In this document: positions 6,377-50,300 of the stretch, in pieces
Numbering within the stretch: the first letter of the stretch is position 1
Layout of the letters: every line of letters starts with the position of its first letter
DNA from: Yuukianura sp. NJ FZ-2021
Lineage: Eukaryota
DNA: 64,000 bases
Assembly (NCBI GenBank): GCA_046563655.1
Contig: CM102290.1
Span: forward strand, 10,044,001 to 10,108,000
Direction of reading: 5' to 3'
Translations under genes and position numbers: made by a program
The notes under the pieces: generated by a model
The model's input: only the letters and a program-made list of their open reading frames with translations
The model's database searches: none
What the model was told of the DNA's origin: nothing

Positions 6377-9300
6377 CTACTCCAGCCCAAATCCCTCGGC
6401 ATTGGAAATGGCAATGATGAGTTTCCGTTTCAGAACCTCTTTGGACGGGTATTCTGGCAAAATCAGTTGATTGAAGCAAGTGTGAGCCTCTGGTAAGTTT
6501 TCTTCACGGTCACGCATACGTGAAATCTGAAAACAAACCAACTTTTCTTGAATTTTTCTGTTTTGTCAAAAATGTTATTTTTCGTGCCACTCATTGTCAG
6601 AATAAGATTTATAAGTTACAAACTAACACACCTTGAAGTACATTTCTCCCATCCCACCAACCGGGATTCGATCGCTCCCTGTTGTGAACAGAAGAAACTT
6701 CTTCTGGAGTTCGAGCGGAAGGGACGTGAGAACGGACCAGAAATCTCTGTGGAAAGAACACCATTTTGAATTTCGTAGGATTTCGAACATTAGTCTTCGT
6801 GACTGACGGATTAAAATGGTGTTCTGCCGAAGAGTCACTTACTGAATCACCCTGTCATCAGGTCGATACTCATCGTACTCGGTCACTTTCCGAAGTTCAT
6901 GCAAATCCAGTGTGGGGGATCCACAGACAAGCATCTCCACCTCTTCTGGTCTCAGCATCTGTCAAGGAGGCCAGGATTAGTAGAGACACAAAGAAGCCGT
7001 GGGAGAAGAGGGGCTTAGGCGCCTAATGAAAACTTATTTGAATTTGTTCTTTACGATGAGAGCGTTGGAGGCTGTCACAGAGTGGAATCCAAGGTAGAAG
7101 GCACGGAACTGAGCGTAGATCGCCGTGTTGAGTACCCAGTCCAAGTACAGTCGAACGTACTCGTCACGATTGCTGTTGCTCACCAGAATCTGCTCTCCAT
7201 TTTCTTTCAAATTGTACGTCATGATCCGATCGTACTCTTGAAGAGATGCCTACAATCAGACAAAACACATTCGTCACTCATTTACTCTGCTTATTTTCTC
7301 AAAACAAGCAACTTTTCCAAAACTCCACATTCAAAAGTTCCAGTTTAGGTTAAGTCTTCAATTTTTTGGAAAAACAAAGTTTTTTGTTCTCAAACCTGAA
7401 AAGTTAGACTCATGTCATCCTCGACACATCCTTCGTATTTGAGTAATTCCTTCAGACCGTGAGCCACATCCTAAGAAACAAAAAACGAATTGCTCAAGTT
7501 GAAGTTGACACTTTTGTGCGTGGAAAGTGATCGCAAAAGTGAAAAGGTCGGAATGAAAAATCGCATGATAAAAAGATCACCCACATTAAATGGCCAGATT
7601 TTTTTTTTTCAAAATTTTTAAAATTGCAATTTTTCTGTAACCTTTTTCCCTGCGATTTTTTCAGTTTTAACCAAATTATTCCTATTACATGGAACCCTCT
7701 TGTGTGTTTTTTTTAATTTTACCGGCATGATTTCTGCCAAGTCTTCAATGGATGGATCTCTCGTCACTCCCACTGCAGCACTGTCCAAAGATGGCACCAC
7801 CGGCGGAGACAGCAACTTCCGATAACAAATTGACGGGAAATGCAAATCCAGAATAATCGAGTTGTATACAGCTAAACCCATTAGAACGCCTGGGAAAAAA
7901 TGTATTGTTATATAATTATTTTTAAAACCGTGGTAATCTTTCAAGCAATTACCAATTAGGTTGTACTCTCGCAAGCTGCCTTGCTGTGCCAAACTGAACC
8001 AGTAGCACCGAGAATTCGGATAGTAGACAAACATTCCATATTCAGGCTGCAAAAACACGAAAGAGAAAGTGACCCTGTGTTTTGATCAAAAATTAATTTT
8101 TTAGTGCTAACCTGAAAAATGTCTCGGATCAGAAGCAGAAACCACTCTTTCGTGAGGCCGCCCATATCAAGTCCTGGTTCTCCTACGAATGACACGCGCA
8201 GCTTCTTCTTCAAGTCCTTCTGCTTCGTAGCAATCTACCAAACACAACAAACCAAGATAACGTCACGTTACAGAGACTCAGAACTTGGTTAAAAAAATAC
8301 AAATACTGCGCATGTGTAAAGCTTCCTGGGAACTCACTTCTTTGAGAGAGTCGCCCACCAAGTGATTCCGTCTGACGTGGATGTTGAGGAAGAAAATGTC
8401 GATCTGCGGAGTTTGATGTCGAGCTACTTTAGCCACCAGGGAGCGTCTTGCCACTAGAATCATTTGGTGCTCAGCGTCCTTCGTCAGAATGATGCGTTTC
8501 GCAACAATACTAAGCATGAAGGGATACTGACAAAACTAAAAACAAACAAAAGCCATTTGATTAGTATGTTTTTGGAATTGAATTAAGAATTTGACCTTTG
8601 ACGAGGCAATCTTACCGAAAACTGACCAGCACGCTCGGGACTTGGAGCTTGCCAAGTCCAGTAAGACTGAAACGTAAAAAATTGTTCGGCTCTTAACTCA
8701 TTGGATACAAACTTACCTTCTCATCCAAATAAAAATGTAATGAAAATACTAAGTTGAATAGAATACCTGCATCAAATCAACATGGTCCAGTGCACTGTTG
8801 TAGAATTCGGTGTAGTGGAGAAGGGCCGGATGACCACCATTATTCGCAGCATCTGCAAAAATTGCACACACAGGGAATAACATTTTCAAAAAACGACAAC
8901 CAAGAATGTAAAAAATAGTTTTAAAAATGCTTCGTACTTAGGAGAGCCAGAACTCTGGCAGCAGCAGGAATCCACCATTTGGATTTTGAAAGTGGTGGCA
9001 GTGTTCGATCAGCTGGCGGAAATTGACGAATGGTTACAAACTGAGTCAGTTGACGCACAAGCATGCGAAGACGCCCAACTTCCAACCTACAAAAACCAAA
9101 CGGACATAACTTTGACATTTCTAAATATGAAAATGTAGGAACATTTGGAAGATGTTGACGTCCTTACAGTCTAAACCAGTGCACAAGCATTTGGTGATCA
9201 GTGTTAGGGAGAGAAGTGATGTGTCGCAGGACATGGGCCAACACAGTGTATGACGACTGTGCATTGAATATCGGATTTTGCAAAATCACAAAAAGAGCTC

Positions 9301-11142
9301 GTACTTTATCCTTGGCATACAACCTGAAATTCAAAAAGATGTAGTAAAGAATGCAAAAATTGTGATGCTTTTTTAGTTTTCCTCACTTTCTTTTTTCATC
9401 CAGAAGCGCATTGACAATGGACTTCAGAACAGTTTTCTGGACCACTGATGGCTGAAATTAAAAAGTTCGTTTTTCAAAATTTTTAAAACAAAGTTTAGTT
9501 GAAATCGTGAATTCATTACACTTAGTAACGTAGCTAAAACAATTACCGAGTTTCTAAGCGTATCATTCACAGAGTAAATAAATTCCATGTTCAAATGTGG
9601 ATCCTGTATGAGATAGGCCTGACGATCCATTCCTTCTTCCAGCTCTGTTGACTTGGCCTGTGATAAGGATTTTTTAGTCAAATGTTTATGTATACAAAAA
9701 TAACATAGTATTAAAATTGAAATGTTTTTCATCAGTGTTTGTTAAAACTTTTAAACACTTTCATGTGAGCGTCTTACTCTAAAAGTTGAGCAAATGTCAG
9801 CATAGGACTCGAAAGTTCTTCCGTAGAAGCGCAAAAGCTCTCCATAGTTCCCACTTTGAGTTGCGTGTCTAACAGCTTCCCTGAAACCAAAAGTCTTTTA
9901 CAACCCAGCAACGTTTCAATTAATTAATGAACTAAAATAATTTATTTGACTGTGACCTTACAGGAAATCTTCTCTGTTTGTTTCCTGGTCATTGGTCGTG
10001 TATCGCAAAAGAAGCTGTTCAGCCACTTCACCCAAACCACCATCACTTCCTACTCCCTCTTCACTCATTTGCATCTCGAACCGTGGGTCTCTGTCCTGCA
10101 AAAAAAAATCAGGCCAAGGTCAAAATATAAAAAAAAATGCTGAATGCTGGGTTCGAACCAGTGCTTTCTCCAATCCCTGCCTTACCCGTCACCACTTAGC
10201 AAGCACTTGAAACCTAATGAAATGAGGGAGGAGCTGTGACAATTATTGGTGGAATCCAAAATATTGGGAATTCTCCACGTGATTTAAAAGTGTCAAAAAA
10301 TGGAAAATTTTGAAAATGGAGGGGGAAAATAAATAATTGTATGAATTAGCGACAAAGTTCGCTTGCTCTGGTCCGATTGCACAACTGAACTGGAAGTGCG
10401 AATATGGACATAGGGATGTCATGGGATGGCCTGTTGTCAGTGCCGTTTCCCTGACAACGCCACCCACAACACAACCCAGAAAGTGACCAAAAGTGAAGAA
10501 GAAGTTGGTGAAGAGTCCATTTTTTGAATTGAATTTACAAATGATTGATGAGGAGGAATGACGACGAAAATAAATGTTTGGTGACGAGAAAGCGATCGAT
10601 AGACTCACCTTGGCCAGTCTTGGAAGGGAATTGCAGGACACTGAAGAATCCGGGCGAAACATAATACCGTCAGGAATTCCAACACGGACACCTCCAAGGC
10701 GACCCACGAACAAACCTCCGAGTCCACTGCTTCCACCTCCATTTTCCTAATTTACAACAAACATACATCGCGTGACCTCAAAACAAGCGGCATCAAACTT
10801 TTTCTTAAACTTTCAAATTCAAGAACCCATTTGAATTCTCAACAACTTTTATAAGTTGGAAAAAAAAGCAATGACCTTTGACGTTTTGCTTATGCTTACC
10901 TGAGGAAGTCTCATCTGCTGTATTTGGTCACGTCCATTCGGAGCAGCTCGGATTCGAGCATCATGCTGATTATAGGTGGCTCTGCAGTATGGACACACCA
11001 ACCGTCGTCGTGATTCCAAGCTCCGACCCATGGTCACCGTAACATGACACGACGGACAAGTGATGGATTCACTGCGAGCTGTGTTTGTCACCCCAGAAGC
11101 TCCGCCCCCTCTCACGTCGGAGCCCATCGGATCTTCGGCCAT
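6377..11142 (-). CDS. HECTD2: HECT-domain E3 ubiquitin ligase HECTD2, multi-exon
   Basis: Spliced exons give [90 protein letters not shown] and [11 protein letters not shown]...[10 protein letters not shown] (catalytic Cys codon 6478-6476; stop 6379-6377). The N-terminal exon 11142-10900 carries a CxxC...CxxC motif. The GT-AG junctions I checked are in phase. The start codon is less certain than the HECT part. Confidence 0.9.
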
Positions 11143-11881
11143 CACAAGTGCAGGACGCTGTTGGACAAAATTGTTTTTAAATTCATTTACAAAAAATAGA
11201 TGCTGTTTGCTCAATAAAATAAACTTACGAGGAGGATAAGTCTGGGAAGTGGTGGGAATAGTAATTCCCAATTCCAGGAAGAGGCATCCATGCCCTTTGA
11301 CCCTGATTGACGAAAGCCCTTTAGAATTCAGTGACTGAACATCAGAAGGACTGTCCCCAGTCACTTCTGGAACTCAAATGATGAAGAAGAGACAAGAAGG
11401 GCAGTGGACGTCCAATGTGTTGTCACATCGAGTGTCGCCAAGCCAACTGTAAACTCTCTCGTCTTCAGCTTGCTAAAAATCGATGTTAGGAACCTTGCAT
11501 AACAAATCTATTCTGGACACGAGAAGAGCTGAAAATAAAATATAAACAGGTTGATCGTTCTCCTTGCTTTAATTAATTTCTTGATTTTTTTTAAATAAAA
11601 ATTATTAACTTAACTAACCTATTTTTACCGCTTACTACAGAACCTTACCATTTACTACAACTTACTACAGAAAGTTAGGTATGAAATATTAGGTAGTTTG
11701 GTAGGAAACTAAAGAAACATAGGTTAGTTTGTCAAGCTAACTAACCATAATCAAAGAAAGTTGTTGGGCTAGCAGCTACCCCAACTTTTTATACATTATG
11801 ATTAGTTTAGTTAGTGATTCGGAGTAGCTGAATTAACCTAACCTTAACTGCTTACAACGTCGCTCTACAGTTTTCTTGAAA

Positions 11882-12546
11882 AGGTACGGCAGCAAAGCAT
11901 CAACGGCTTATTCGAATAACAGCTATGAGCTAGCCGCAATGCCAACTACGAGTGCCAGATCGTATCTGCCAATGTGGGACAGATTTTGAAATGGGTGGGG
12001 CCACAACACCGAGAGGCGCCATTTCCCGGCAGAAGAAGTCTATTCCAACACATTGAGTCCTACCAACCACTGTCGCCTAACGACGCAGACCAGCAGAAAA
12101 AAACATCCATTCTGGTACACTGTAGCATTCGATGTTCCGTGACGCAAACTATCCGCCGCAACTAACTCGCTAGGAATCATCGTAATGATTGACCACGAGA
12201 GAGAATCTCCACTCCCAATCGACAGTGGAGGTCCCACGTAGCGAGGCATGACGACGATTCCCATCGAATGAGCTGCGACGAAAGATCGCGACATGGCAAA
12301 TACTTCAATGTAGCATCAAGGATGCTGTCTTCAAGTTGGTTTGAGTTGTGAGCCGAAAGGAATTGGTGGGAAGTCAATGCATCGCAATAGAATGCCACTT
12401 CTTGAAATGACGCTGCCGACGTTGTCACCGCCACCCAAGTCAAAATCAATACCATATTGGTAGTTACGATCCTGCAATCATAGCCGCCATTACGGAGAGC
12501 CGTTAGTCGTTATTCGAACATGCCGCTGATGCTCAGCTCCGTACCT
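11882..12546 (-). ncRNA. Candidate long hairpin RNA: ~330-nt imperfect inverted arms around a 10-nt loop (12214-12223)
   Basis: 11882-12213 aligns with the reverse complement of 12224-12546 along its whole length (e.g. AGGTACGG, TTCGAATAAC, GATCGTA, GATTTTGA, TCTATT, CATTGA, GGAATC, CTCCACT). Mismatches mostly give G:U pairs on the minus strand. There is no transcript evidence. Confidence 0.55.
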
Positions 12547-15500
12547 ATCTCAAGGAAAAGGAAGTGGAATCACAATCGTTCCGCTCCTTCCGCCACCTCA
12601 GAGTAACTTTATGAAGCAACATTTCAAAATACGACGAATTATGTCCAGAGCTGAGCATCAACGCATCCAACAAAAATCATACTTGCTTTTTGTTCGTTTG
12701 GTTAAGCGATTTTGATAATGAAGTTTAAATGACTTCAGTGGCAATGACAACGTGCCGACAATGACCAAAATTCTAAAAGTTTAAACCATAGTCAGACCTA
12801 AGAATTAGCTACTCATAAACACAACAAAGGCTTTGGAATTTTTATGCTCCGTGACTTTAGAACTTGAGGGTTCTCGCGGTGGCTACGCCATGCGCACGCG
12901 TCCCCACAACCAAAACAAGTCCTTTCTCCGTTTTCCCAGTCGAAGTGAAAGTCCCAGCGAAAGTAGTTGTTCTCTTCCCTCCCAAACAGAGCGTGTGAGT
13001 ACTCCCAAAGTCTTGGTTTTTCCAAATAATCTTCCAACTTCTAAAAGTTCAAAGTTCACTGGACAACCCCCAAACTCTCCTCCGCGACCTTGACTCGGTC
13101 CTTCCGGAGTCTTTGACCAGGGCATGAGTGATTCTGGTGACTGGAAATTCTTACAAGGATCTGCAATGGAAAAGGTCAGACTTCCTCATTCCTTGTTTCT
13201 CCGTCACACCCAAAGTCAAGCGACTCTCACCTAAAAACAAATACATAAAAAAACAGAAATTCACATTTCGTTTCAATCCTCTAAAAATCCATAAGCTAAC
13301 AAATCAAAAATTAGGGTTTTGCTTCTCGCGCTGCAAATTAACTTTTCCTTTCAATTCCAGCATGCTTTGAACTGGTGCTAATGAACACAGTCCCTTTGAT
13401 TGTACAGAATTCTTAGAAAGGAGAAGTAGGATCAGGATCGATATCGCTCGCTATAGACCATCTCCTCCAGATCTCTTAATGCATTCCGCCCTTATCCGCC
13501 TCCAGGAAAAACAAAAATCTCAAGACAGTCGTCCCCAATCCCACAATTCCCACTTTCCCTCTCCATTTCGCAATTTTTCTCAATTTCTACTTTTTCCCGG
13601 GGTAACTTGAGACTTTAAACGAACAGGAATGAATGACCGAATAAAATCGACAAAAGAATCACAATGACACAATTAGGAATTCCAGACACTGGTTCTCGTC
13701 TCCATAAAAAGTAGGCAGACAAGAGAACCAGTCAATATTTTGGTAAACAATCACAAGTACATTAGTAAACAAACTCCAAAACTTGTTTTTTTTAACACTT
13801 ACATCCATTTTCAGGAATCAGAAGCGGAATTTAACTAACTTTCTAACTTCGTCCGTATCTAGTATAAACACTTGACGACTCTACAACTGCGAATTTGGAA
13901 TAGGACAACTTTGTAAACAAAACTGAAGATTCAGGCGTTCCAATTTGTTCTACTTTTACTAAAAAAATACATAAAATTTCAACTTTTTGTTCAAACAGAA
14001 ACATCATTTGACCTTGACCTTTTCCGCATCGCTTATTAATAGTTAACTTTCAGCATCAGTCCAACTCCAGAGAGAGTGAGTTAGGTAATCACTTTACGGG
14101 AAAAACAGAAAGAGAAAATATGCCAAAAAATTGCAAACAGTCGTTGTTGGCATTGGAAAGTGTTTGGATGACTTCCTACATTGCAGAACAGCCGCTTACG
14201 CTAATACAGATCACCTACCAACACCGCTACACGCAACATCTGGGTTGAACTTTGTCAAAATACCCTCGCATGACACCAAAGTCAGGCAGAGGAAATTCAA
14301 AACACCTAATTTAAAACTTGTTAAAAAAACTTAAGAATTTTTCTAAATTCACAAGAAACTTGAGCAAGTTTAAAAAATGCTTTTGATAAGCACAATTTAA
14401 ACAAAATTATACTCTGGTGTGTCAAGCGTGTGGTTGGAATGTTGCGTAAGCTGCTGCCAGGCGACGTCAACTACGTTTTACTTTTTCCAGAAGCATATTC
14501 CACACTTGAATTCTCCAGAGAGCGTGTCGAAAAAAAAAACCCGGCCCCGCCCAGTTGTCCACTTCCAGAAAAATTGGACTTTTTAAAATAAGTATTTTTT
14601 TAAACTGTACGCGCTGAAATTGCTATTATAATTTGACACTTGAAAGACTAGCGTCCATCCCTGAAAGATTGGATATTAAAAATAGACATTTGACGCTTTC
14701 TAACCTCTTGTCCACGATAGGTCAATCCCCCTTCTCCTCATTATTCATCCAGACGAAGACGAGCAGCATGAGGTTATGGACACGATTTCATTTTCATTTT
14801 TCTTTATTTCTTGCGGCTTTGATGGGTCCTCGGACGTGGTACTTGGGTTTCAGGAGTCAGATTCCATCCATCACAAAAAATATCGTTGTATGAAGAGCGT
14901 CATAAACTTCCAACTCTCCGGAGTAGTGTAATTATCCAAAGCTAAAGTCGCCTTCTTCCCTCGTCTTTCAAGTGGTAGATGGTTTGGTTCATCTCCTGGA
15001 AATAGTCACAAGCAAAGCAAATCAGAATGGTTCACAGTGAATTCTCGAGTGGTTTCAATTGGATCAAGGTTGCCTCATCTCTTTCTCACAAGGAATCATC
15101 TATCTTCTGCACATGAAAACAATCCGCAACAAAAAACCTTAGCTTCTCTTTCCCCATCGAAATTTTTATAACTTTACGAAATAGAAATGTTTAAGGTTGG
15201 ACAAAAATCTCAAGTACTACCCGCAAAAACATGCGCACAGCAGGGATTTGACATGCGTGAGGTCAACTCTTACCATGACCTCACGCAGGTCATCTGGTCC
15301 AGTCCATATGTCACTGTTCGGCGTCCGATGGCTGAAGACTATCCTATCCATATGCTTCGGGGAGATACGAACCCTACTTTTAGATCTCGTGCTCAAGAAG
15401 GCACAAGGAATCTGAATCTCATTCCTCCGAAAGAGCTCTTAAGCAGTACTGCTAGCTATACCCAATTGAGGACAACCGGGAGCCAGCGTCTTGGAAGCTA

Positions 15501-17699
15501 AAATGGTTTGGAACTATAAGTTAAGTGGGATTGAGCTAGTGATGCCCTGAGTACTTGCGATATGTTTTAAATCAAGAACCAACTCCCAAAACAAAACTCT
15601 CCTCCCGAGATCTCCCTTCCAAAAGCCAAGTCCAACAGGCTCTTTAGCCAGTTTGGACTCACAGTCAGTCTTTGGAGGTTAGTGAGACAGTCCATCCCTT
15701 CATTTACTTCTCAGTTAGTAAATCAAACAATTAACGATCTACACACTCACCAGTTGACCAACTTCTGCAACACTCTGGTGCACACCTCGGAAGACCAGGT
15801 AACTCGAGTAGACTTGATGTGACGCTTCAAAGGTTAGGTAAATTGTCAGATCCAACTCCAGGGGCTTCCGGACACTTTGAAAAACGCAAAAAAAAAAATT
15901 AAAAATTATTTTTTGAAATTCAAAACATTTTCGTACATTGTCAATTTCACACATTGTTACTAACTAGGTTCCGAGCTGTAGCAAGGTAAAGGTTTAGCAT
16001 TTTTGTTAGGCTAAGTTCTGTTACAAGGATGCGCTGTTGTTAGGTTAACCTAACCATCCACATAAGCACTCCATGGCGAGTAATAGTGCCGGTAGACAGT
16101 GATTTAGCAGTAATTGATAGATGAGGTTATTAAATCCAAGCATCAAAGTTGTTTGCTTAAAGCATTGTAAACTCACTTTGATTTGTACCAAAGAGGCATC
16201 GTTGCAGACTGCAAATTTATGAAGGAGAAGTTTTGCTCGTTTGCTCCGCCGCTAATTCACACGAAAGGCATTGACATGTCGAAAAGCCTGGAGGGGGGAG
16301 AAGCATTTTCTATTGTTTGAGTCCAGGAAGAATCCTGTCCAAGTACACGAACACGTCCATCCAAAGGTGTCGAAAGAATTATGCTCAATTCAATCTGGAA
16401 TTGCAAAAGAGAAAAAGTTATTGTTAGGTGGCTAGTAACAGAATTTGGCAAATCAAGGCTGATTATGCAGTGGCACTTGTCCTTTGTCCATAATTCTAAT
16501 CTATTCAAAAACATTACACTCCATCACCCGTCGCTTAACAACTTCTAATAACAAGCAACGCAAATACCCGCATCAACCGTCGCTCAGTCTCGGTTAAATT
16601 CATGGTCACTCTCAAATCAAATTACCACAACCACAAATGCATTCTCTAAAAAAGATTAAAATCACAAATCCGATGGTTCGTTTCTCACCAAAACCATATC
16701 GATATACTATTGGTCCCGCTACGAATTAACCTACCCTAGTAACTAGCATCACTACTGAAATGTAGTAAACAACTTAACTTTGTACAGCAGAACTAACCTA
16801 ATAAGAGTCGTGTTAGGCTAAATTAGGTTCATGCTGTGTTAGTGAGGTTAATAAAAGTCGGCATGATTGCTTAGGTTACAATTGAAGGGTCCTGAGCCTG
16901 ACGCTAGGATAGAATACAACCTAGTACACTATATTAGCGGACGAGGCCTTGCCTCAAGTGGAAAGTGTGAAGCAATAGGCGATGGTGTTAATCATGAGAA
17001 ATAATATTCACAGTAAGCATAATGTATAACTTCATAACTCTTCAAGTTAACAAGTGGTTGGGAGGGGGAAGACCTTGAGATGGGGGGAGGGTTATACTGG
17101 ATCCCAGTAATTTAGTTCCAGCAATTACAAGTGATAGGAACAAAGTGTATGAGTAAGGAACTGAGTAAAACAAAAGCTTCTTCAAATGACACAGCCCATT
17201 AATTTCAATTTTTCAAATGAGAGGATTAGAAGATGATAACAGTAAGATGTGTCTACCACACCAGACTTGACTGGAACATAGAGGGTAACTGGGTAACATG
17301 ACAGGGTCAGGGCATCAACCACTACTACTACAACGGTGGAGGCCACATGGAATCAGTCTTCCTTCATCCAGAGCCAGTTCTGGACTCCTATTTCTGGAGC
17401 ATGACATTGACAGCTTAGATTTTTTTAGAGGTTAAGATTGAGTTGATAGACTGGAAGTAGGAGTAGCTTACGAAGTGCTGGAGATTGGATTCTGACAATT
17501 ACTGACTCTTCTTGATTTTTGAAGTCTTAAGCTTCCTGGTAATTTTTTGGGTGACCATCACAGGCTTCAAGTTTATTCCATAATCCGTCCCTTGGTCTCC
17601 GTCGATTTCTGGAATCCTGGTGCTCAAGACGTACGTTTATCCTCCCCGCAAGTGCCTGCGTGTCAAAGTTCAAAAGAGAGCTATTAACAAGAGAAAATT

Positions 17700-20600
17700 A
17701 TGCGGCGCGTGAGTCAGGAACAGAGTAGGAGAATCAGCCATGATGCCTCCATACGCAAGAGGAGCACGGAACATCCATATGTCCGTCGTGGGAGTATGGA
17801 CGTTACAAACCTCGGATCGGTAACAAACCAACTTAAATCATTCGTCTTTAAAACTAAAAGGTTGGAGGTCATAGGAGAGCCAGTCCCATTTTCAAGTGGC
17901 GTAAAAACCAGGATAAGACTTTTAGCGGTCAATTTGTTGCGTAACGATGATAGTGAGCGATTAGTCTTACCTTTTTCACCAATTTCCCGTTGCTGGATGA
18001 CCCATATCAATCCATTAATTGGCTTCAGCACCGAATTACTAATTGTAAGGATGACCCGCTTGCGGCACACCACCTTACACGGACTGCGGCCGGGAAGTGG
18101 CGAAACACGAGCGGTGAGAGTTGAAGGACGAAACGGCGTGGCCTTTCCCCCAGTCGTCGGCACTTTGGATCTCCAAAACTCCACTAAAAACTTCCAGAAA
18201 CGCTCAACTGACGACCTCCTTTTTTTTTTATAAGAATGAAACGCACTATGTTTACTGCAAAACGTTTTCTCAGAGTTTAAAAACGATGTGTAGTTTTCAA
18301 AAAATTACTCCTTATGCTTCGTTCTCTAGTAGCTCAAAAAATTACAACTGCTCCACAAAAAACTTATTCCAGCGGCGGTAATTCTTTCGATTAATTTTAC
18401 GTTGCTTGCCTTGAAATCTCCAATTTAGTAATCCATCACAATCACAAGAGATTTTTCTCACTTTCTTTGGTAAATTCTTATCATTCTGACTAGAATATAA
18501 TTCAACCACTGGTCTGCAGTTTGGTAAATGTGTCAGGAATCCTTTTAAGTGAAGAATTTTTTTTCTTTTTTATAAACCGAAATTATGAAACGTGTGTAAT
18601 TGAAATGACGAAATGACCAAAAACCTGTTTTGTCAATTCAGAAAACAACTTTCTCAGATCATCTCTTTCGCTTTCTTCTCAATTTTGCAAAAAGTTTTCC
18701 CTTATAACATGAATGGCTGCAGAGTTAACTAATTCTCTGCCAACTGAATAGTTGAATAATATGCCACTGAATGGACTATTTCAGTTAGTAACTCCAGAAG
18801 TTAGTGCCGACATCTGACCCGTCTAAAAAACAAAGACAAGCGTCTTTTCCGTTTTGAAGTTTTTGGCGCCTTTTCGATCATGCTTTTGGATGGGGATTGT
18901 TGCATTTCGTGGGAAATTTAAATCCATTTGCTCATTGATGGGCAGCTTAAGTAAGATAAGGCGATAAGGGATGCTTTTTTTTATAACGTGACATGAACAC
19001 GTGAAGGTGAGTGTATTTTAACTTTGCTTGGAGTTCGTAACATTCTGATGTGGTTCTTTGACATTCTGTGATCTTTGACATAGTTTTTAAACATAGACTT
19101 CTGCGGGGGTAAGAATGAAATGGAGAGTCCTTGACTTTAGCAAAAATGAAATAATTGCGCAATGATCCGTTGATGAGATTAAACGTTAAAAATAGCTAAC
19201 TAAATGTTGTTTATGTTCTGTTTTTGTAGAAGCATTTGGTGCCTACGGAGCGATGTGGACCGTTGAGCATTTATATACAGGTGAGTCTGTCATATTTTTG
19301 ATGTAAAATCATTGGTAGCATGGCACATGACCTCGACATCCATATTAAACGATTTACAAATTGGACACCAATGCATATAACTGAACTATTATGTTGATTT
19401 ATAGGGAGATTTGGCTCAACAGGAGAAGAGAGCCGTCTTCCTAACCGTGCACGATTTGGGATGCAACCGTAAGTAACTTCAGCTATTTCATTTGTAAACC
19501 GTAATTGCTAAATGATTAATTGAATAGTGGTTTTCGTACTACAACTCGTGTAATAGACGAGTTGTAGGTGTTACGCTTCGTATAATCTAACATCAATTAT
19601 TGATGGTTTGTGTTTCGGAACAGATACGTCTTTCCATGACTTTGTGGAACATCCCTGTATGGCCGAAATCAAGGAAAGATCCGTTTTTATTCATGTTGAT
19701 ATCCCTGGACAAGAAGACAACGCGCCTGACCTTCCAGACGAGTAAGTCCAAATTATTGAGTTAACTTTGGAATTGAACCAAAGTCGTGTCCACTGAGGAG
19801 GCATTCAACTACTTTATTCAAGAACATTCCATAAATTAGCATCTGCGGAGACTTACTTTGTGAAGTGATGTTTTAGAAGTAGTTGGAATTGACTGCTTGG
19901 CGATAACGTCAACCTCAGTCAGTGTCGGCTTTCCATGATTAGAACCAGAGTAACCAACAAGGCATAGTGGGTTGGGAGCTTGGACCTTATTAGTGGAAGC
20001 TGACTTGACAGTTGGTGTTGTCCAGAAAGTGGGAACTGGGATGATATAAATTTTGAAATATGAATACTTGAATACTTTATGGGTCGAGTAGCTTCTTGCA
20101 TCAGAAGAAGAGTTCATGTTCACTTGGTATTCGGATGAAAGTGAAACTGGTTCTTGCTCTAACCAGTTCAATAATGAATGGCATGAGGAATCCGATTAAA
20201 TAATTGATTTGATCCGATTCTTCTTTTTGGTTTCCAGTTTCACGTTTCCAACGATGCAAATGCTGGGTGAGGACTTGGTTACGGTCCTTGACTTTTTGCA
20301 CATCAAGTACGTGATCGGACTGGGCGAAGGGGCTGGAGCCAACATTCTGCTCCGTTTCGGAATGGCCCATGCCGCAAGATGTTTGGGCCTCATTTTGGTT
20401 AACGTCACTGCTGGCAAGACGGGAGTGATGGAGTACTTCAAGGACAAGGTACGCAATGATATCCACATCGTGCGAATGTCTACGCCGCTGCTCTCAAACT
20501 TTTCCATCCGACATGTGAAGTTCACACTGTGAACTTCCCTATCAACAACCCCTAATTATTTTTGTCTTTTCTATTTTTAGTTTATTAACTGGAAGCTTGG

Positions 20601-27090: not shown

Positions 27091-27211
27091 GCAGTACAGC
27101 AATTTTAACGTTCGATAATCGAACTTTGATTGTATCGGATCCGGTGAGTGAGACAACCGGTCAGATTAACCAAAGCCGCCGTCACCGAACCGATAGTTTC
27201 TCCAAGTTTTT

Positions 27212-28163
27212 GGTTGAGGTAAGCTTTAACGAGCGCCATTGTAGCCGCACAGTGTAGCCGCTAGCGGCCATCTTGAGTGGCTACAATGGGTGGCTCCGCT
27301 CGAGCGGCAACATTTGTAGCCTCCCGTGGAAAATTCTGTCTTGTAGCCACCGTATTGTAGCCGCACCTGCTAAATAATACTGGCAACACTGTTGAAGAAT
27401 TTAAGAAAACTTAACCTATAGACGCAATCAGTATTGCGAACTGTAAAAAACCTAACATACAGACGTAATCAGTATGGCGAACTTTAAAGAACCTAACTCC
27501 GCCGAAGGCGCGGAATTAGGTTCTTTAAAGGTCGCCAAAAGTTCTTTAAAGTTCTTTAAAGTTCGGGAAAAAATGACAAGATTTAGGATTTATTGAATTA
27601 AAAAGTAAAAGTTGCCAGTGTAATATTTTTTGCTGTTTCATTCAGAGAATTCACTTGTATTTTACCGCGCCAAAGGCGCGGCGTTAGGTTAGGTTAGTTC
27701 TGTACATTCGTGGTTTTCGTTTATGTTAATATACAGGAATCCACCAGTTTTAACAACTCGCTCTGATTGGCTTATTCCTCTATTCTCCTCCCACGGTTAC
27801 CGTAAAACTCCAAGGCGAAGAGTAAAAGTGAACTGTTAAGATTAAGTAAACAAGAGACAGATCAGCTGCTTACATTTTTCCCTCCACTCGTTGGAGTTTC
27901 GCGGTACAAGGGGAGGGAGAAAGAGCGGGAGCGTCGGTTGTTAAAACTGGTGGAGTCCTGTATCTCGATACCAAATTCTTCAACATTGTTGCCACCATTA
28001 TTTAGCATATGTGGCTACAATTTAGTGGCGACAAGGACAATTTTCTCACAAGCGGCTACAAATGTTGCCGCTCAAGCTTAGAAACCCATTGTAGCCACTC
28101 AAGATGGCTGCCGGCGGCTACACTGTGCGGCTACAATGGCGCTCGTTAAACCTTACCTTAACC
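27212..28163. mobile_element. Non-autonomous DNA transposon (MITE) with ~190-bp TIRs and an 8-bp target-site duplication
   Basis: 27212-27401 (GGTTGAGGTAAGCTTTAACGAGCGCCATTGTAGCCGCACAGTGTAGCCGC...) is an imperfect inverted copy of 27973-28163. AAGTTTTT flanks both ends (27204-27211 and 28164-28171). There is no transposase ORF. Confidence 0.85.
27734..27960. mobile_element. Nested 227-bp Tc1/mariner-type MITE with TA target-site duplication
   Basis: TA|CAGGAATCCACCAGTTTTAACAAC ... GTTGTTAAAACTGGTGGAGTCCTG|TA: 24-bp TIRs with one mismatch, and further weak internal symmetry. Confidence 0.8.
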
Positions 28164-29361
28164 AAGTTTTTGATTGGAGAAGTTTTTAACTATTTTGCAA
28201 TTTTGCCATTTTGTTATTTTGCAATTCATTTCATTCATTCAATTGCCATTAGGCCATTGTCTACAATTAAAAAGTTGAAATATTGCAGTTTTTCAATTTA
28301 CGGTTGGTTTTGTCTATCAAAAATTAATTAAAAAAATTAATTAATATGTTTATAATTGAGGATATAAGTAAAATATTTTGAGAAAAATATTAAATATTTT
28401 TTACTTTAGTATTTTGCAGATTTGAAATGCCATTACGCCAAAAAAGTACGGTTTTGCAGCCTGGTAATCTGGTAATTGCAAAATCCAATTTAAATGCACC
28501 AACAAAGAAAAGTTCAACACCAATCCACTGTATGTGATTGACTAATTAATTACAAGGTTAAAATTAGTACTGAATAGTAATTAAGAAAATTAACCAATTA
28601 ACTAGAGGTAATTATTTTTTCTAAAAAAGAAGGGCAAATTTGTGGGTTGAGCGACCCGAAACGATAACGCGCGGGTAATTTCAAATCGAAATTTTGTTTT
28701 TGTCTTTCATTTGTTGTTGTTTGTTTTCCTTTCAGTGTTTGCTATTGGTCCAACAAAAAAAAACCCTCTCGTCTGGAGAAAAAGCAAGTCGAAACTTCCA
28801 CTGAACGAATGGAGTGACTGGAAGGGAAGTGAGGCTCCTGGAATTGTGGTGTAAATTAGCAAGTGCCGGTTGATTAATCGATTAATTAGCAGTTGATAGT
28901 TGATAGAAGTAGAGTTACTTGAACTCTACAAGACGAGTACAAGTTGTAGTTAGTAGTTAGCATAATTGATCATCGTTCGTTCGCGTGAAGGAGGCGACGG
29001 TGAAATCGTTATTCACTACTAGTGATTGAATATCCATTTCAATTTCAACTAACTACATTCGATTCCGGTAAGTATGCAAATACATTACTATGCCATTTCT
29101 GGATCTTCAGGAGTCGATTACTTTTGCTAATACTTTATCACGCCGTTTGTGTGACGACGTTTTTATACGTCAATGTCACATTGAAAATGTGTCTGTGAAG
29201 TCCACAGTGTGAGCTGCAATGTGTGGAACATAGCGGGATACTGGATACTTGACGAATAGTAACAAGTTGTTAACAGCAAAAGCCTGGCATTCTAACTTTT
29301 GACTTTATGTTAGCTTTCATCTAGAGCTCATCATCATCGGTGGCAGGGTCCACGCTTCTCA

Positions 29362-41300: not shown

Positions 41301-44300
41301 GTTGAAGTTGAGAAGTATAACTTTTGAGACAGACAGCGGCAGTGACAACATACGCTTCGTTTTTGATAATTTTTGGCAAAAAGTGGTCAAAATAGAATTT
41401 GTAAAGGAAGTGACAGTTTAAACTTTTTTGAACTTGATTAAGCCTTCTTAACATTTGCGACTGTTTGCTCGAACGATGAAAAAAATGCAGAAGTTAAACT
41501 TTGCAAAGTATGAAAAGTTCAGTCTGATTTTAATATTTGGTCTTCTATTTGCTAATACACAAAAAAGCAATGCGAAGAGGACTAAACAGTAAGAATTTAC
41601 ATAACGTTTTCACACTTTGGTTCCATTTCTTACAATCTAGCGTAAATAAATAATTAGGTTTGAATTTTTGGAAACAAAATTTCGAATATTTTTCAAAACA
41701 CTTTATCTAAACTAAGTATTTGTCCTAGTTTTTTCAAGTGGTTTTTAAGATTATAGTTTTCAAATAGCAGCGTTTGAAGGTTTTTTTTTGACACGTTTAA
41801 AAATGACTGGTTTGGTCCCTAGGTTTGTTCTTGCTTGTTTGACTTTTTTGATTGTCATAAAATTTTGTTTTCTTTTCAATCGCTTTTTAAAAAATTTAAA
41901 AGTTGAAAAAGTAAAAGGAAGGAAATTGGTTTAAAATGTTAATCTACTTTAAAGTTAATAGTACTAAAAAGTAGGTAAAGTTAACCTAACGTAATAATTC
42001 TCCCTTAAAGAGTTTAGCGTTTGAATTTTTAAGTGGAAACCTTGTAAATCGCGTATCACAAATTCTCAATTCTGACTGTAATAAGTGCTGATCGTCGTCG
42101 TTTCAGAGTCAATCCAAAAGTTTGCTTTGACATTTTTTGTTCATTTGAGCGTCGAAGAAAATGGCGGTGGAATTGAGGGGAGAGGCCTCTGTTGACAGGA
42201 ATTTGAAGTTTCTGCGGTAGAAGGCACTGTGGGCGGAGTCGTGAGTCGACCAATAGGACGGGGTCGCTGGACACAAAACGTTTTGTTGCGATGTTGTGGG
42301 TTGAAGTTGGTCGGAGAGGGAAATGAATTGAGTTCGGCGTATACGTGGGCTTGGACGTCTTGTGGTTCAGTGTAGTCACACATTTGGGGTGACACGGAGA
42401 GGTGGGTGACCTCTGACCCCTTACCCTGCTGTGCAGCGTTGCTAAGTTCAGAGTAGATGTCGGAGGGGGATCCGTAGTCAGGGCAGAGGGCGGTAGATCG
42501 GGTGGGTTTGGATCGGATTTGAGCATAGCGAGGTGTTGGTATGGCCAGTAGTTGACTTTCTCCGGGGATCAGCGAAGATGACCTTGGGGGAGGGCAGTGG
42601 GTGGTAGTAGAAGTTGATCGTTGAGATTTGACCTTGGAATGCGGGGGATGAGCTTTCGGGAGGACGGTGACGTCGGGAGGAGATGCTGGTGACCTTGGAT
42701 CTTCACTGACGTGGATGAGGTCATAGAGATGGTCAATCGTTTCTTTGGCATCCCAAAACGCCTCTGGATCGCTAAGCTTGTCCCGAAGGCCCTCGATTAC
42801 TTCGTTAGACAGGTCACTTGGAAGAGTCTGTACTCCTTTGTCTTCCATTTCAACGTCTTCAAATAGTGACGACCTTGGGCGTACTAGATTTGCACGAGGT
42901 AGAGCAGGTATCGGCATTTTTCCGTTGGCGGCCATTGGCACTTTTGACCCAGCTGAAAAGAGGCCGCTGTAGCCGTTCTGTGGCGGTGGAGAGTCCCGTC
43001 CTGCGTGAGCATTAAGTCTCGGTCGACCGAGTTCGGTTTTTTCCTGACTGCTTCTGTCTCGACGACAAACGTACACGACGAGAACAATGACCAGGACAAT
43101 AATGATGGCCAGGGCAACCGTGCCGACGAAAATGGCAAGGAGGCGGAGCTTGCCGGTTAATTGCGGAGTTGACAAGACTTCTTCATCAGTATCGTTCACT
43201 GCTTCAAGTTCGTTCAAACAGAGAAAAGTTGCTTCGGAACACAGATCGGGCCATTCGGCAAACGAAACTAGTGTTTTGGAAGTGTCGGAACGACCAAGAC
43301 AACCTGCCCCCTTGGCTGTCGTCAAACATGCGCTGTTGTTCCACAGTTGTTCTTGGAACCAGTCGCTGGATCCGTTCAATGTCACGGACGGAATGAACAA
43401 AGGTGAGCAGTTGCAGGGTTGCAGAATTTCGTTGTCTAGAATTGCTGTAAATGGCGTGGTGGAACTGTGTCCTACTTTTATAAAATCCGTACCTAGGTTA
43501 GAACCCCACCGGTTGCCAATCAGAACTGTCAGATTGAACTGGGCTGAGTGTTGAGTTAGATCCAATCCACCGGATTCGACGGATTCAAAAGAATTATTGA
43601 CGAAAGACAGTTCTGTCCAATCGCGCAGCGTGAGTCCGTTCGTCCGGACGTCCTGGAAGACATTGTTTTCGAAGGTGGCGGAAGGTATGATACCGGACAA
43701 GGCGTGACCTTGAAGTGTACCAACTGTTGAGTCAGTCCAGGTCATGTTGGTTATGCTGGAAGCTATACCTTGTGGGTCAATGTTGTTGATTTGACAGGAT
43801 TCGACGATCCATGAGTCGTTGATGAGGATTTCTTCGTCGAAGGCTTTTGATTCGATGGACGTAACGCGGGAATTTTGAAATAGAATTTGTTGAAGGGTTT
43901 TGCCTTTGAATGCAAGTGAAGAGATGAGCCGGATTTCGGAGTTTAGGAACTGAACAATGTTGAGGCTGGAGGGAAAGGATTTCGTTGGCAAAGTGTCGAT
44001 GGAGACGTTATCGAAGTTCAAATTTCGCGAAATTATTTCTGAAAACAAAATTCAAAAAATTTTAAAGAAGTTTGAACCAGCATTAAATCTAATTTTTGAA
44101 ACTTGTTTATCAGTTTGAAAATAATTTCATTCTGATTTGACTGAAAATGTTTGACTTTTGTGGCGTTTCGGTGTATAATACGCGCGGTATTTATATAAAG
44201 ATCGCAGAAGTTGTAGAATGGAATTCTTTGAAAAACTGATGGGATATTTGTAAATCATAATACAATTTTTTTTCAATGATTTTTTTAAATTAAAAAATTT

Positions 44301-47300: not shown

Positions 47301-50300
47301 TTTTTTTGGTTTTGAGGGTAATTGAATAGTACGACATTCTGTTTGGTAAGTCTAGCAGGCGACATTGGGCGTTTTCTTGTCCAACATAAGTTGGACCATA
47401 TCCACTTACTCGTACTCCCCTCCTTGTTTCATAAATTTGTGGCTACCCGGCCCTGAACTAAACTAGATTCCACAACTAACCTAATTGGCGACGTTTTCAG
47501 GTTAGGTAGGAAGGTAGACTATCCTAACTAAGCATAAATTAACTTCGTCTAGCCCAACTACCTAACGGAATACGAAATTGATGTATGTTGGTTAGGTCAT
47601 GGAGTAAATTTGTAAACTTATTAGGTATATGGAGTAAATTTGTTAGGTTAGTTTTATGGGGTTGTGTACTTTAATTGTGTTTGTAGAGGAAATGTGTAAG
47701 TGCGAAGTTTGATTTGTTCGATGTGAGCTTGGTATTAGAAAATTTTGTTTTGATTTTGGTTGTTATTAGAGAGGTTGAGAAACTTTGTGAGTTTGGTGTG
47801 ATTCTCATGGCTTTTGATTGTATGTTTTAAGTGTAGAATTTGAAGATTGGGATCGGAGTGTGATATTTTGAGTGAATAATAAATCATTGCAAGTGTTTAT
47901 TGTAGCGGAGTGGAGGAGGATGTGGCTTTTCTGTTATCTGTGCTTCAAAATCCAACAAGAAACTCTGTTGTATGGCAGTTAAGTGATGCAAAGAGTAACA
48001 GAGTTTAGAGATCAATTCTGTAAACTCTGTTTCTTGTGAAAAAGAAAAAATTCATTTTTTTTTCTGAGACGTATTCGCTCTTCTCCACGCTTTCTGCTCA
48101 TTGCTAGGTTTTAGATTACAGTAGTTAGTTGAAGAGAAAAGAAGTTTTAGGGATGCTTAATTTTAATTGTAGTTTAATTAAAGTCTGATGACGTTAATTG
48201 GTGCTATTTTGCTCAAATTGAAAGTGGTTTTGTTTATATTGTGGAGATGAAATCGACAGGGAGAAAAATGGTGAATGGAGTTTTTTCTCTTTTTTCTTGA
48301 GTTGCGATGCACTTGGTTTCTGGTTTATTTCGCTGTCTAGCAAAGGAATCACCAATTTAACAATTCTAAACACTCAACTACATGCATCGAGAACGAGCAG
48401 AAGGGAAAAAAGCAAGGGAAAAGATCGTTTAAGAAAAACGAAAACAAAACAAAGATGCAACTTTTAAGCGGGGTTAGAAACTTTGGGAAGAAGAGCCAAG
48501 AGGCTTAAGAACGAGAGCGGAAAATACGATGCCAGGGTTCGAGTCTCAGCGGGTACACGGGTTTCTCCAGGAGAATTTCTTCTCTTTTCTCTCTTCTCAA
48601 CAAAGTCATGACAAAATAAAGAAATTTTAGGAAGTTTTGAAATCTCTGCGTTTTAAATTTTGATTCAAAAAGGGGACCCTCCCCATCGCTTGTGATGGTT
48701 TACTCTAGATTTTTGGAGTTTTGTGAAAATTATGTTTGTGAATTTTGAAATTTTTTCATTTTTTTTAAATGGGTGCCACCCTTTATCCACCCATTGGGTG
48801 GATGGCGTACTCTGCTGGATAAACCGTATACATGCAGCCTGAATGCATTTTTGAATCTACTCCGTGACAGGCGGAAGATTCATTTGTGAAACTCTATTTT
48901 GGGGTTCCTTTGCGGCTAAACGCTTCAACATTCCTCTCTTCTAACTTTCGTAATTCTATTGGTGTGAAAAGATTTTCAAAACAGTGGGAGGTCTGTTTTG
49001 AATTACAATTTTAGTTTTTTAGAAAATGCGAAAATTTAAAATTTTCGAACCTGATCTGCGGCGTCTTCCTGGCAAATACAGGTGATGAGCATGTGTGAAG
49101 TGTTCACGATAGAGCAGGAACATTCTGGCGTTGTTTCACAAATTTCTTGCGATACGATCCATGTTGTGGTGACACTGTCGTCGTCAAGGTCGCCACTCAC
49201 ATTGGCGACTGCCACTGGCCCGCTAAAAACCAGGGAATTGATGATTAACACAACGATGAACCTGCGTATACGCACCGACGCGCACATGATTCCAAGCACA
49301 TGCATTTCTTAAAAGCCGAATTTTAGTTAACTCTGGCAGAATGTCGAAACATTTTTGAAACTGAAAGCTGGCGCGGCGTTGAACAGTGTTTGCGACGGAA
49401 ACAAAAATTTGTTGATGTAGTTTGAGATTAGTTTGGGGGTTGAAAATCTTGACGCGGTGAGTTTGAATACTTTTGAAATGGCGGAGTTGAACAATTTTGA
49501 AAAATCCATAAAATTATGAAACTGTTTTTGTTGAGTCACGTTGGATTTGAAAAAAAGTGGTTTTTGACGAATGCCAAAATCTGGTTCTTCTCGTTTTTCC
49601 TTTGTTTTTTCCGTGAGTAGAGTCAGAGGACCTTGGATGAGGTTGCTTCTGGGAATGTCATGTTTAATGGAGGACTAAGGTAGCTAATTACCACTTGCAG
49701 CAGATACTCAACTTATTAGATTTTTAGATTTCTAGAACTGAAGTTTTTAAACATTTTTTTTTGGAGCTTATGAGTGTGACTTTAGACTTGAAGTCACAGG
49801 CACTGACTGTCTCCTTCTTGGTTACTGAATGCTGATTGCTGAAGTGAGTGCGTGAGTTTGGAGTGAAACTGACTCAGTTTGTGTTGTTTCCGAAGCTTAA
49901 GGGAGTTGTCTTGGTTGAAGATGGTTGTAAAAAGTGGATTTTGTTGATGGATGAAATAGGAAGGGATGCTGAGAAATGATGACGGAGAATAATCTGATGA
50001 GCTTGTTCTTCAATTTTGAAACACTTTTTTTTGAAATGTGCCAAACTTCCGCTCTCTTCAAGTTCAAAACTGCAGAGAGTGGAGCTGGAAATGTAATTTG
50101 GAAGTCCAAATGGAAGGATAATTAAAGGAGAGCAAAAGTAATTTGGAAGGGGACGTTTTACTTTTTTTTTTTGCTTTTTGAGAGACAGGGAAAAGGTAGG
50201 AATTAAGGGCTACGACCTCCACTTTACTGTGTTGTAAATGCACTTTTTTGAAAGTGCATCAAAACCTTTGTCTGGGAGCCTTTAAGGGAGTCGGCGACTG

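Follow-up and report, generated by a model that had tools for sequence, protein, structure and literature searches.

A long, diverged inverted repeat upstream of a HECT-domain E3 ligase gene, with an excess of G:U pairs on one strand

Hairpin RNA (hpRNA) loci of Drosophila are exemplified by hp-CG18854, hp-CG4068, Nmy/Tmy, and the de novo hpRNAs of D. simulans. Foldback and MITE-type transposons are comparable in structure: they have long inverted arms with little or no loop, and are non-coding. The hpRNAs, as described in PMC10317233, are recognised by their Dcr-2-dependent siRNAs, by a primary transcript whose level increases in dcr-2 mutants, and by arms that are homologous to a target. The same source presents them as young, fast-evolving, and lineage-specific loci born by inverted duplication, with siRNAs that are fully complementary to their targets and, in one cluster, with near-perfect arms (PMC10317233). 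Another class is that of the expressed, structurally stable inverted duplicates found in animal genomes, many of which are possibly functionless and some of which yield small RNAs, according to PMC5398296. Finally, giant microRNA precursors can reach comparable sizes: in the account given in PMC12553114, precursors of mir-375 are lengthened to as much as 330 nt in some crustaceans and to 180 nt in a mite, and those of mir-12 exceed 1 kb in Lepidoptera.

The locus considered here belongs to a 64-kb stretch of DNA (the window), whose main features are collected in Table 1. Positions 11870-12560 (691 nt) form a single long imperfect inverted repeat, as seen both in the sequence and by global alignment. 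The initial annotation had described near-continuous pairing at about 70% identity between 11882 and 12546; the repeat and its degree of pairing were borne out, although each end lies about 12 nt further out. Global alignment of the two arms gives 240 matches, 96 mismatches (among 336 aligned positions), and 19 gap columns, corresponding to 71.4% identity, and the left arm matches the reverse complement of the right arm with a BLASTN E-value of 2e-26. By repeat search, the outer 128 nt of the hairpin are 71% complementary. The apical stem CTCCACT/AGTGGAG, also noticed earlier, is perfect over 7 bp (12207-12213 with 12224-12230) around a loop of 10 nt. The hairpin is, thus, real and was correctly described, and it is unusual in its length and strand asymmetry.

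Table 1. Positions of the hairpin and of the other features discussed in the text, in window coordinates.
Feature	Position	Strand	Basis or details
5' arm of the minus-strand hairpin (plus-strand right arm)	12224-12560	-	Global alignment, MFE structure, BLASTN
Apical loop, 10 nt	12214-12223	-	Sequence, alignment; apical stem-loop in the folds of both strands
3' arm of the minus-strand hairpin (plus-strand left arm)	11870-12213	-	Repeat search, fold, alignment, BLASTN
Candidate third, partial, very weak arm copy, inverted relative to the right arm	12640-12780		Two collinear 24-nt matches, 83%
HECT gene, first coding segment	11229-11291	-	ATG at 11291-11289, then 21 codons; about 80% DNA identity to the relative L001
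Intron, 71 nt	11228-11158	-	Next exon from 11157
Candidate 3' splice site (pyrimidine tract and AG), exon from 11529	11529-11549	-	Sequence only; stretch not conserved in L001
Foldback/MITE-like element	27205-28170		193-nt terminal inverted repeats, 84% identity (82.5% by gapped alignment); candidate 4-5-bp flanking duplication

Divergence is even along the stem, since segments of 22 alignment columns mostly retain 14-20 matches, with a sole outlier at 21 of 22. This even distribution of the 96 mismatches and 19 gaps points to uniform decay. Perfect runs are short, as previously estimated: the longest Watson-Crick run in the duplex is 10 bp, and the longest run counting G:U as paired is 13 bp on the minus strand and 12 bp on the plus strand. 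The mismatches are spaced somewhat more evenly than random (variance-to-mean P = 0.02-0.07), and this is seen under every definition of a 'disruptive' mismatch that was tried, not under the minus-strand definition alone. The GC content of the hairpin is 48.8%, versus 35-42% in its flanks, a contrast that suggests a foreign origin of the hairpin sequence.

Among the described systems, the locus is best classed with the structurally stable inverted duplicates of PMC5398296, with which it shares two copies, a short spacer, and a predicted stable hairpin if it is transcribed. The elements of that source are, however, intergenic, mammalian, and mostly short-armed (PMC5398296), whereas the present repeat has 345-nt arms, is old, and carries a G:U excess on one strand. 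Similarly to the Drosophila hpRNAs, its nearest counterparts of known function, the locus is an inverted duplication of several hundred nucleotides that folds into one extended hairpin, is lineage-specific, and lies near protein-coding genes. It differs from them by its 71% arms, its runs of at most 10 bp, and the lack of a target in the searches of the window and of proteins. The extended inverted-repeat fold of an hpRNA is, therefore, present, but complementarity of siRNA grade is not. The giant microRNA hairpins are also rod-like, highly paired, hundreds of nucleotides long, and from invertebrates, and a mir-375-like word occurs near the present hairpin. As described in PMC12553114, they have a conserved miRNA/star duplex at their base and are kept across related species; no basal mature/star duplex was found in this hairpin, and the locus is not conserved in the one relative that was compared.

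The fold was examined for each strand of 11870-12560 with RNAfold. The minus strand forms a single rod of -352.9 kcal/mol, compared with a mean of -214.6 +/- 7.6 kcal/mol for its shuffled versions (z = -18.3), none of the 20 being as good. The plus strand reaches -273.1 kcal/mol (z = -9.8, again with 0 of 20 shuffles as good). The minus-strand structure contains 274 pairs, 38 of which are G:U, and that of the plus strand contains 246, including 13 G:U. These values agree with the early description of a long rod-like hairpin with a minus-strand G:U bias.

The preference for the minus strand is also found in the mismatches between the arms. Transversions account for 48 of the 96; the transitions comprise 36 that read A.C on the plus strand, and hence G:U on the minus strand, and 12 that read G.T on the plus strand. 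The direction of this bias had been recognised from the start, but the hand count of 28:7 was too strong; the full alignment gives 36:12, which departs from 1:1 with a two-sided binomial P of 0.0007 (95% interval of the proportion, 0.60-0.86). The bias is present in every third of the stem, with ratios of 11:3, 11:6, and 14:3. Pairing of the minus strand is broken at 60 of the 96 mismatches, namely the 48 transversions and the 12 that are A.C on this strand.

The transversions provide an internal comparison. They include 15 A.A and C.C mismatches versus eight G.G and T.T, a lean that is distinguishable neither from the 36:12 of the transitions (Fisher P = 0.41) nor, on its own, from 1:1 (P = 0.21). 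Because transversions lean likewise though they are unable to form G:U, selection for G:U pairs does not explain the lean. A second comparison is offered by the control repeat 27210-27402/27973-28165, which lies in an unskewed stretch, has 82.5% identity, and shows the two G:U classes at 10:10. Relative to transversions, the minus-strand G:U class of the hairpin occurs at the control rate (36:48 versus 10:17, P = 0.66), and the plus-strand G:U class is the scarce one (12:48 versus 10:17, P = 0.11). Such a pattern is unexpected under selection for pairing, which would deplete plus-strand G:U and transversions alike.

The hairpin is located inside a 17-kb domain (1-17 kb of the window) in which the plus strand is A+C-rich and the minus strand G+T-rich, and in which both the HECT gene and a GPCR gene, whose matches were to generic clusters of aminergic receptors, are encoded on the minus strand. 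The cumulative excess of A+C over G+T climbs to about +1158 at 17 kb, remains flat to about 18.8 kb, and then descends across the plus-strand genes, which are an Ndr-family gene from about 20.2 kb and an RCC1/PHR-domain, MYCBP2-like gene at 30-64 kb (Pfam). Over the window, the skew tracks gene orientation, with a G+T-rich sense strand (to about 60% G+T in 44-54 kb), and its sign flips in the interval separating the HECT gene from the divergent Ndr-family gene (about 17-19 kb). Over the whole 64 kb, this skew is unusually strong for an animal genome. In transcribed DNA, strand-specific substitution enriches the sense strand in G+T, and the window shows this enrichment directly. That substitution in transcribed DNA can be strand-specific is well documented (PMC2927911; PMC1559705). 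Together with gene orientation, the base skew of the domain leads us to infer that its minus strand is transcribed. As the skew of the hairpin is like that of its surroundings (54.8% A+C, with 53-57% in the flanks), the transversions lean the same way, and the control repeat is at 10:10, much of the G:U bias need not signal function.

How much of it can be attributed to composition was assessed with a neutral model, in which random palindromes evolved under HKY (kappa = 2, equilibrium set to flank composition) to 71% arm identity, with 600 simulations per composition setting. The expected minus- to plus-strand G:U counts were 24:21 with the composition of the 4-16.5-kb flanks, 25:19.6 with that of the near flank, and 26.6:18.5 with the most skewed composition of the window. 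Simulations with at least 36 of the former and at most 12 of the latter made up 0, 0.33%, and 0.33% of the total in these three settings, respectively. A transitions-only model tied to flank composition has a hand-derived maximum of about 1.67:1, and the observed bias exceeds this bound with P = 0.048. According to our own arithmetic, with about 0.18 substitutions per site and per arm, a palindrome is expected to have covered roughly one quarter of the distance to the skew of the flanks, and the hairpin already has the full flank skew. An asymmetry above that of the neutral simulations counts against mutation as the sole cause. The composition-matched neutral model, thus, leaves some of the G:U excess unexplained, and this modest remainder could come from weak selection for minus-strand pairing or from a locally stronger mutation bias.

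The explanation that accounts best for these observations, and which we hold with moderate confidence, is that an inverted duplication, old and restricted to its lineage, is decaying and has no RNA function under selection; a mutation bias of the sense strand would be the main source of its G:U excess. A non-coding sequence of about 345 bp would have been duplicated in inverted orientation, by a foldback-type mobile element or a local template switch, about 580 nt upstream of the ATG of the HECT-domain E3 ligase and within the 17-kb domain of putative minus-strand transcription. The arms would then have drifted to 71% identity, free of selection for RNA function, and the minus-strand G:U excess would mainly be the product of domain-wide, strand-biased substitution, C-to-T and A-to-G on the sense strand. 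If the repeat is transcribed, as part of either the 5' leader or the first intron, it would form a long, mismatch-studded duplex, whose editing or dicing would be incidental. A merely decaying duplication would be ordinary in itself; it would show that a G:U excess on one strand can come from transcription-linked skew, and that it is no proof of function.

One way for the duplication to have arisen, compatible with this leading explanation and which we regard as possible rather than probable, is that the hairpin is the remnant of a non-autonomous transposon of the foldback or MITE type, belonging to a dispersed family. Like such transposons, it consists of long inverted arms around little or no loop and lacks coding capacity, and its GC content, unlike that of its surroundings, is in line with this origin. 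Several results illustrate the lack of coding capacity. The differences between the arms have no codon periodicity (34, 29, and 33 by phase). Three open reading frames overlap the arms; in Pfam, two of them have no match at E-values up to 1, and the third, which spans the loop, has only a chance-level match (E = 0.2, 12.1 bits against a cutoff of 25). The 110-aa frame at 12177-12509 (-), in the right arm, had no match in a word-indexed search among proteins of near length. Its two HMMER matches are to tandem-repeat proteins, with scores summed over 5-6 repeats and a single stretch of 30% identity over 61 aa, and were discarded as spurious.

The window also contains a second foldback-like element (Table 1), and MITE-like short inverted motifs adjoin the hairpin at 11612-11729, both of which favour a foldback origin. 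Nevertheless, this second element shows no similarity to the arms. Furthermore, no further copy of either arm was found in the 64-kb window (BLASTN with a word size of 7; TBLASTX), the arms contain no internal or tandem sub-repeats, and no target-site duplication fits the ends of the repeat over a grid of end positions, although a short one could have decayed, each arm having diverged by about 18%. A mobile element is, therefore, no more than a candidate source, given that neither a target-site duplication nor a second copy in the window was found.

The weak candidate copy listed in Table 1 has, against the outer arm, a local score of 40, well above its shuffled versions (23 +/- 3.1), but a window-wide scan of 1236 tile comparisons gave scores of up to 43 at unrelated sites, so that this match is marginal. 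The MYCBP2-like exon at 60294-60353 (+), which has exact runs of 12 nt with the left arm and 16 nt with the right arm, was also considered as a relative of the arms and rejected, as its local score of 37 is at chance level on the same scale.

As for minor observations on repeats, the foldback/MITE-like element has internal TTAGG-like and palindromic motifs, and is the only other long inverted repeat of the window. The stretch adjoining the hairpin, 11580-11870, is AT-rich, with words of the TAACC/GGTTA type and an inverted pair (11612-11626 with 11715-11729). TAACC/GGTTA-like words are also present at 16788-16827 and 47471-47510, and may belong to a small MITE family.

The gene downstream of the hairpin, on the minus strand, was named HECTD2 in the initial annotation; its place on the same strand and its HECT domain (Pfam HECT) are confirmed, the name having been examined to the level of this domain only. 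Its start codon appears to lie further upstream, by one short exon, than the ATG at 11142, which a plain reading of open reading frames would select. The sole relative found, which is distant, is the orthologous locus L001, 12.2 kb on a metagenome contig. Seven collinear HECT exon blocks align between L001 and the window, with 59-93% amino-acid identity, along with weaker matches in the neighbouring Ndr-family gene. Conservation in L001 (5660-5950) covers the first coding segment together with its donor, with differences of a synonymous type, which confirms the start codon given in Table 1. Upstream of this ATG, the two sequences do not align.

On the strand of the HECT gene, the hairpin precedes the candidate acceptor by about 340-350 nt and the conserved ATG by about 580 nt; the distance of about 350 nt to a putative minus-strand acceptor had been given correctly, the acceptor being recognised by its sequence. 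In L001, no inverted repeat of at least 30 nt occurs in the 12.2 kb, the 3.5 kb upstream contain only repeats of 20-24 nt, a size expected by chance, and no DNA similarity to the hairpin arms was detected. As judged from this contig, the hairpin is absent at the orthologous locus of one distant relative, and closer species could still have it.

The main functional alternative to a decaying duplication, which is unlikely in our view, is a minus-strand long hairpin RNA, hpRNA-like or another dsRNA element, kept folded by selection that tolerates G:U transitions. It would be transcribed with or beside the 5' region of the HECT gene, and either processed by Dicer into endo-siRNAs or bound by dsRNA-binding proteins such as ADAR. 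Such selection would agree with the 80 kcal/mol advantage of the minus strand and its larger number of G:U pairs (38 versus 13), with a 36:12 ratio that surpasses the composition-matched simulations (P of about 0.003-0.01) in all thirds of the stem, and with the mildly even spacing of the mismatches. In addition, within the local skew domain, it is the sense strand that folds better. Since hpRNAs are young and lineage-specific according to PMC10317233, the absence of the hairpin from a distant relative would not be fatal to this proposal.

Several observations are, however, difficult to reconcile with it. Selection on the fold would have let most mismatches (60 of 96) break minus-strand pairing, and runs of at most 10 bp, or 13 bp with G:U, would yield few siRNAs able to match a target perfectly. 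The directional lean is shared by the transversions, and the L001 ortholog has no such repeat. One check proposed with the initial annotation was to search the arms by BLASTN and BLASTX for a target gene or a repeat family; neither the 64 kb nor the protein searches gave a match, and no parent or target was found there. Of the hpRNA-like locus or ADAR substrate that had been proposed, what stands is the long, imperfect rod fold of the minus strand; the functional side found no support, in view of the 71% duplex with runs of at most 10 bp, the lack of a target in the window and among proteins, the absence from L001, and the part of the G:U bias that a G+T enrichment of the minus strand would produce. 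Slightly less credible still is the more specific version, that of a lineage-specific, selected minus-strand dsRNA element in the HECT 5' leader or first intron, serving as a source of siRNAs or as a platform for dsRNA-binding proteins in a non-drosophilid invertebrate. If the unexplained G:U excess reflected selection, the locus would count among the rare candidates for hpRNA-like loci that are old and lie outside Drosophila. A selected dsRNA would also imply that such hairpins can persist long after the identity of their arms has fallen to about 70%, as G:U-rich, mismatch-studded stems.

A cis-acting role of the structure in the HECT primary transcript seems very improbable. The hairpin would bridge splice sites, delay splicing, or block scanning in the leader. 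Its position is suitable, 340 nt from a plausible acceptor and on the same strand as the conserved ATG, and the minus strand is the one that folds better. By eye, the outer base of the 5' arm coincides exactly with a donor-like AG/GT (12546/12545). On the other hand, the splice sites around the hairpin are putative, and this AG/GT differs from the two conservation-confirmed donors. L001 has no such structure, and a role of this kind needs no long duplex. A hairpin of -350 kcal/mol in the mature leader is expected to abolish translation.

The least plausible proposal, which would make the repeat the elongated stem of a giant microRNA precursor on the plus strand, with the mir-375-like sequence at 12689 (+) as its mature arm, can practically be set aside, since the strand that folds better and carries the G:U bias is the opposite one, and the motif lies 128 nt outside the hairpin. 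Its appeal comes from a word of 13 bases (12689-12701, +) that coincides base for base with the beginning of the mature arm given for Mir-375 of D. melanogaster in the PMC12553114 supplement, and from the lengthened precursors with highly paired extensions that this source describes. This region also gave one of five weak Rfam matches in 12560-12860, the sole one to a microRNA family (14.1 bits, E = 0.56-1.9). All five are far under their gathering scores, which is 46.7 for mir-375, and the alignment (12657-12711) lacks the middle of the stem. No convincing star partner was found in 10.7-13.6 kb, where the best duplexes reach -17.5 kcal/mol at unrelated places, and the local region folds no better than its shuffled versions (z = +0.5). 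The motif is missing from the syntenic L001 sequence on both strands.

Within the hairpin itself, no Rfam family was found on either strand. At E-values of up to 10, the interval 11780-12640 gave only two chance matches to non-miRNA families, located past the hairpin end, and at E-values of up to 1, the interval 9000-20000 gave only a chance match to a snoRNA. The mir-375-like word is probably a chance occurrence or a relic.

Two other features of the window can be mentioned. A single-exon open reading frame of 636 codons occupies 42141-44051 (-), antisense in the long intron region of the MYCBP2-like gene, and has a weak, below-cutoff Pfam match to Beta_helix (E = 2e-4). On the other side of the hairpin from the HECT gene, 12850-12998 (+) contains CpG and is followed by a consensus donor, GTGAGT, at about 12993; this stretch could be a putative first exon, divergent from the HECT gene.
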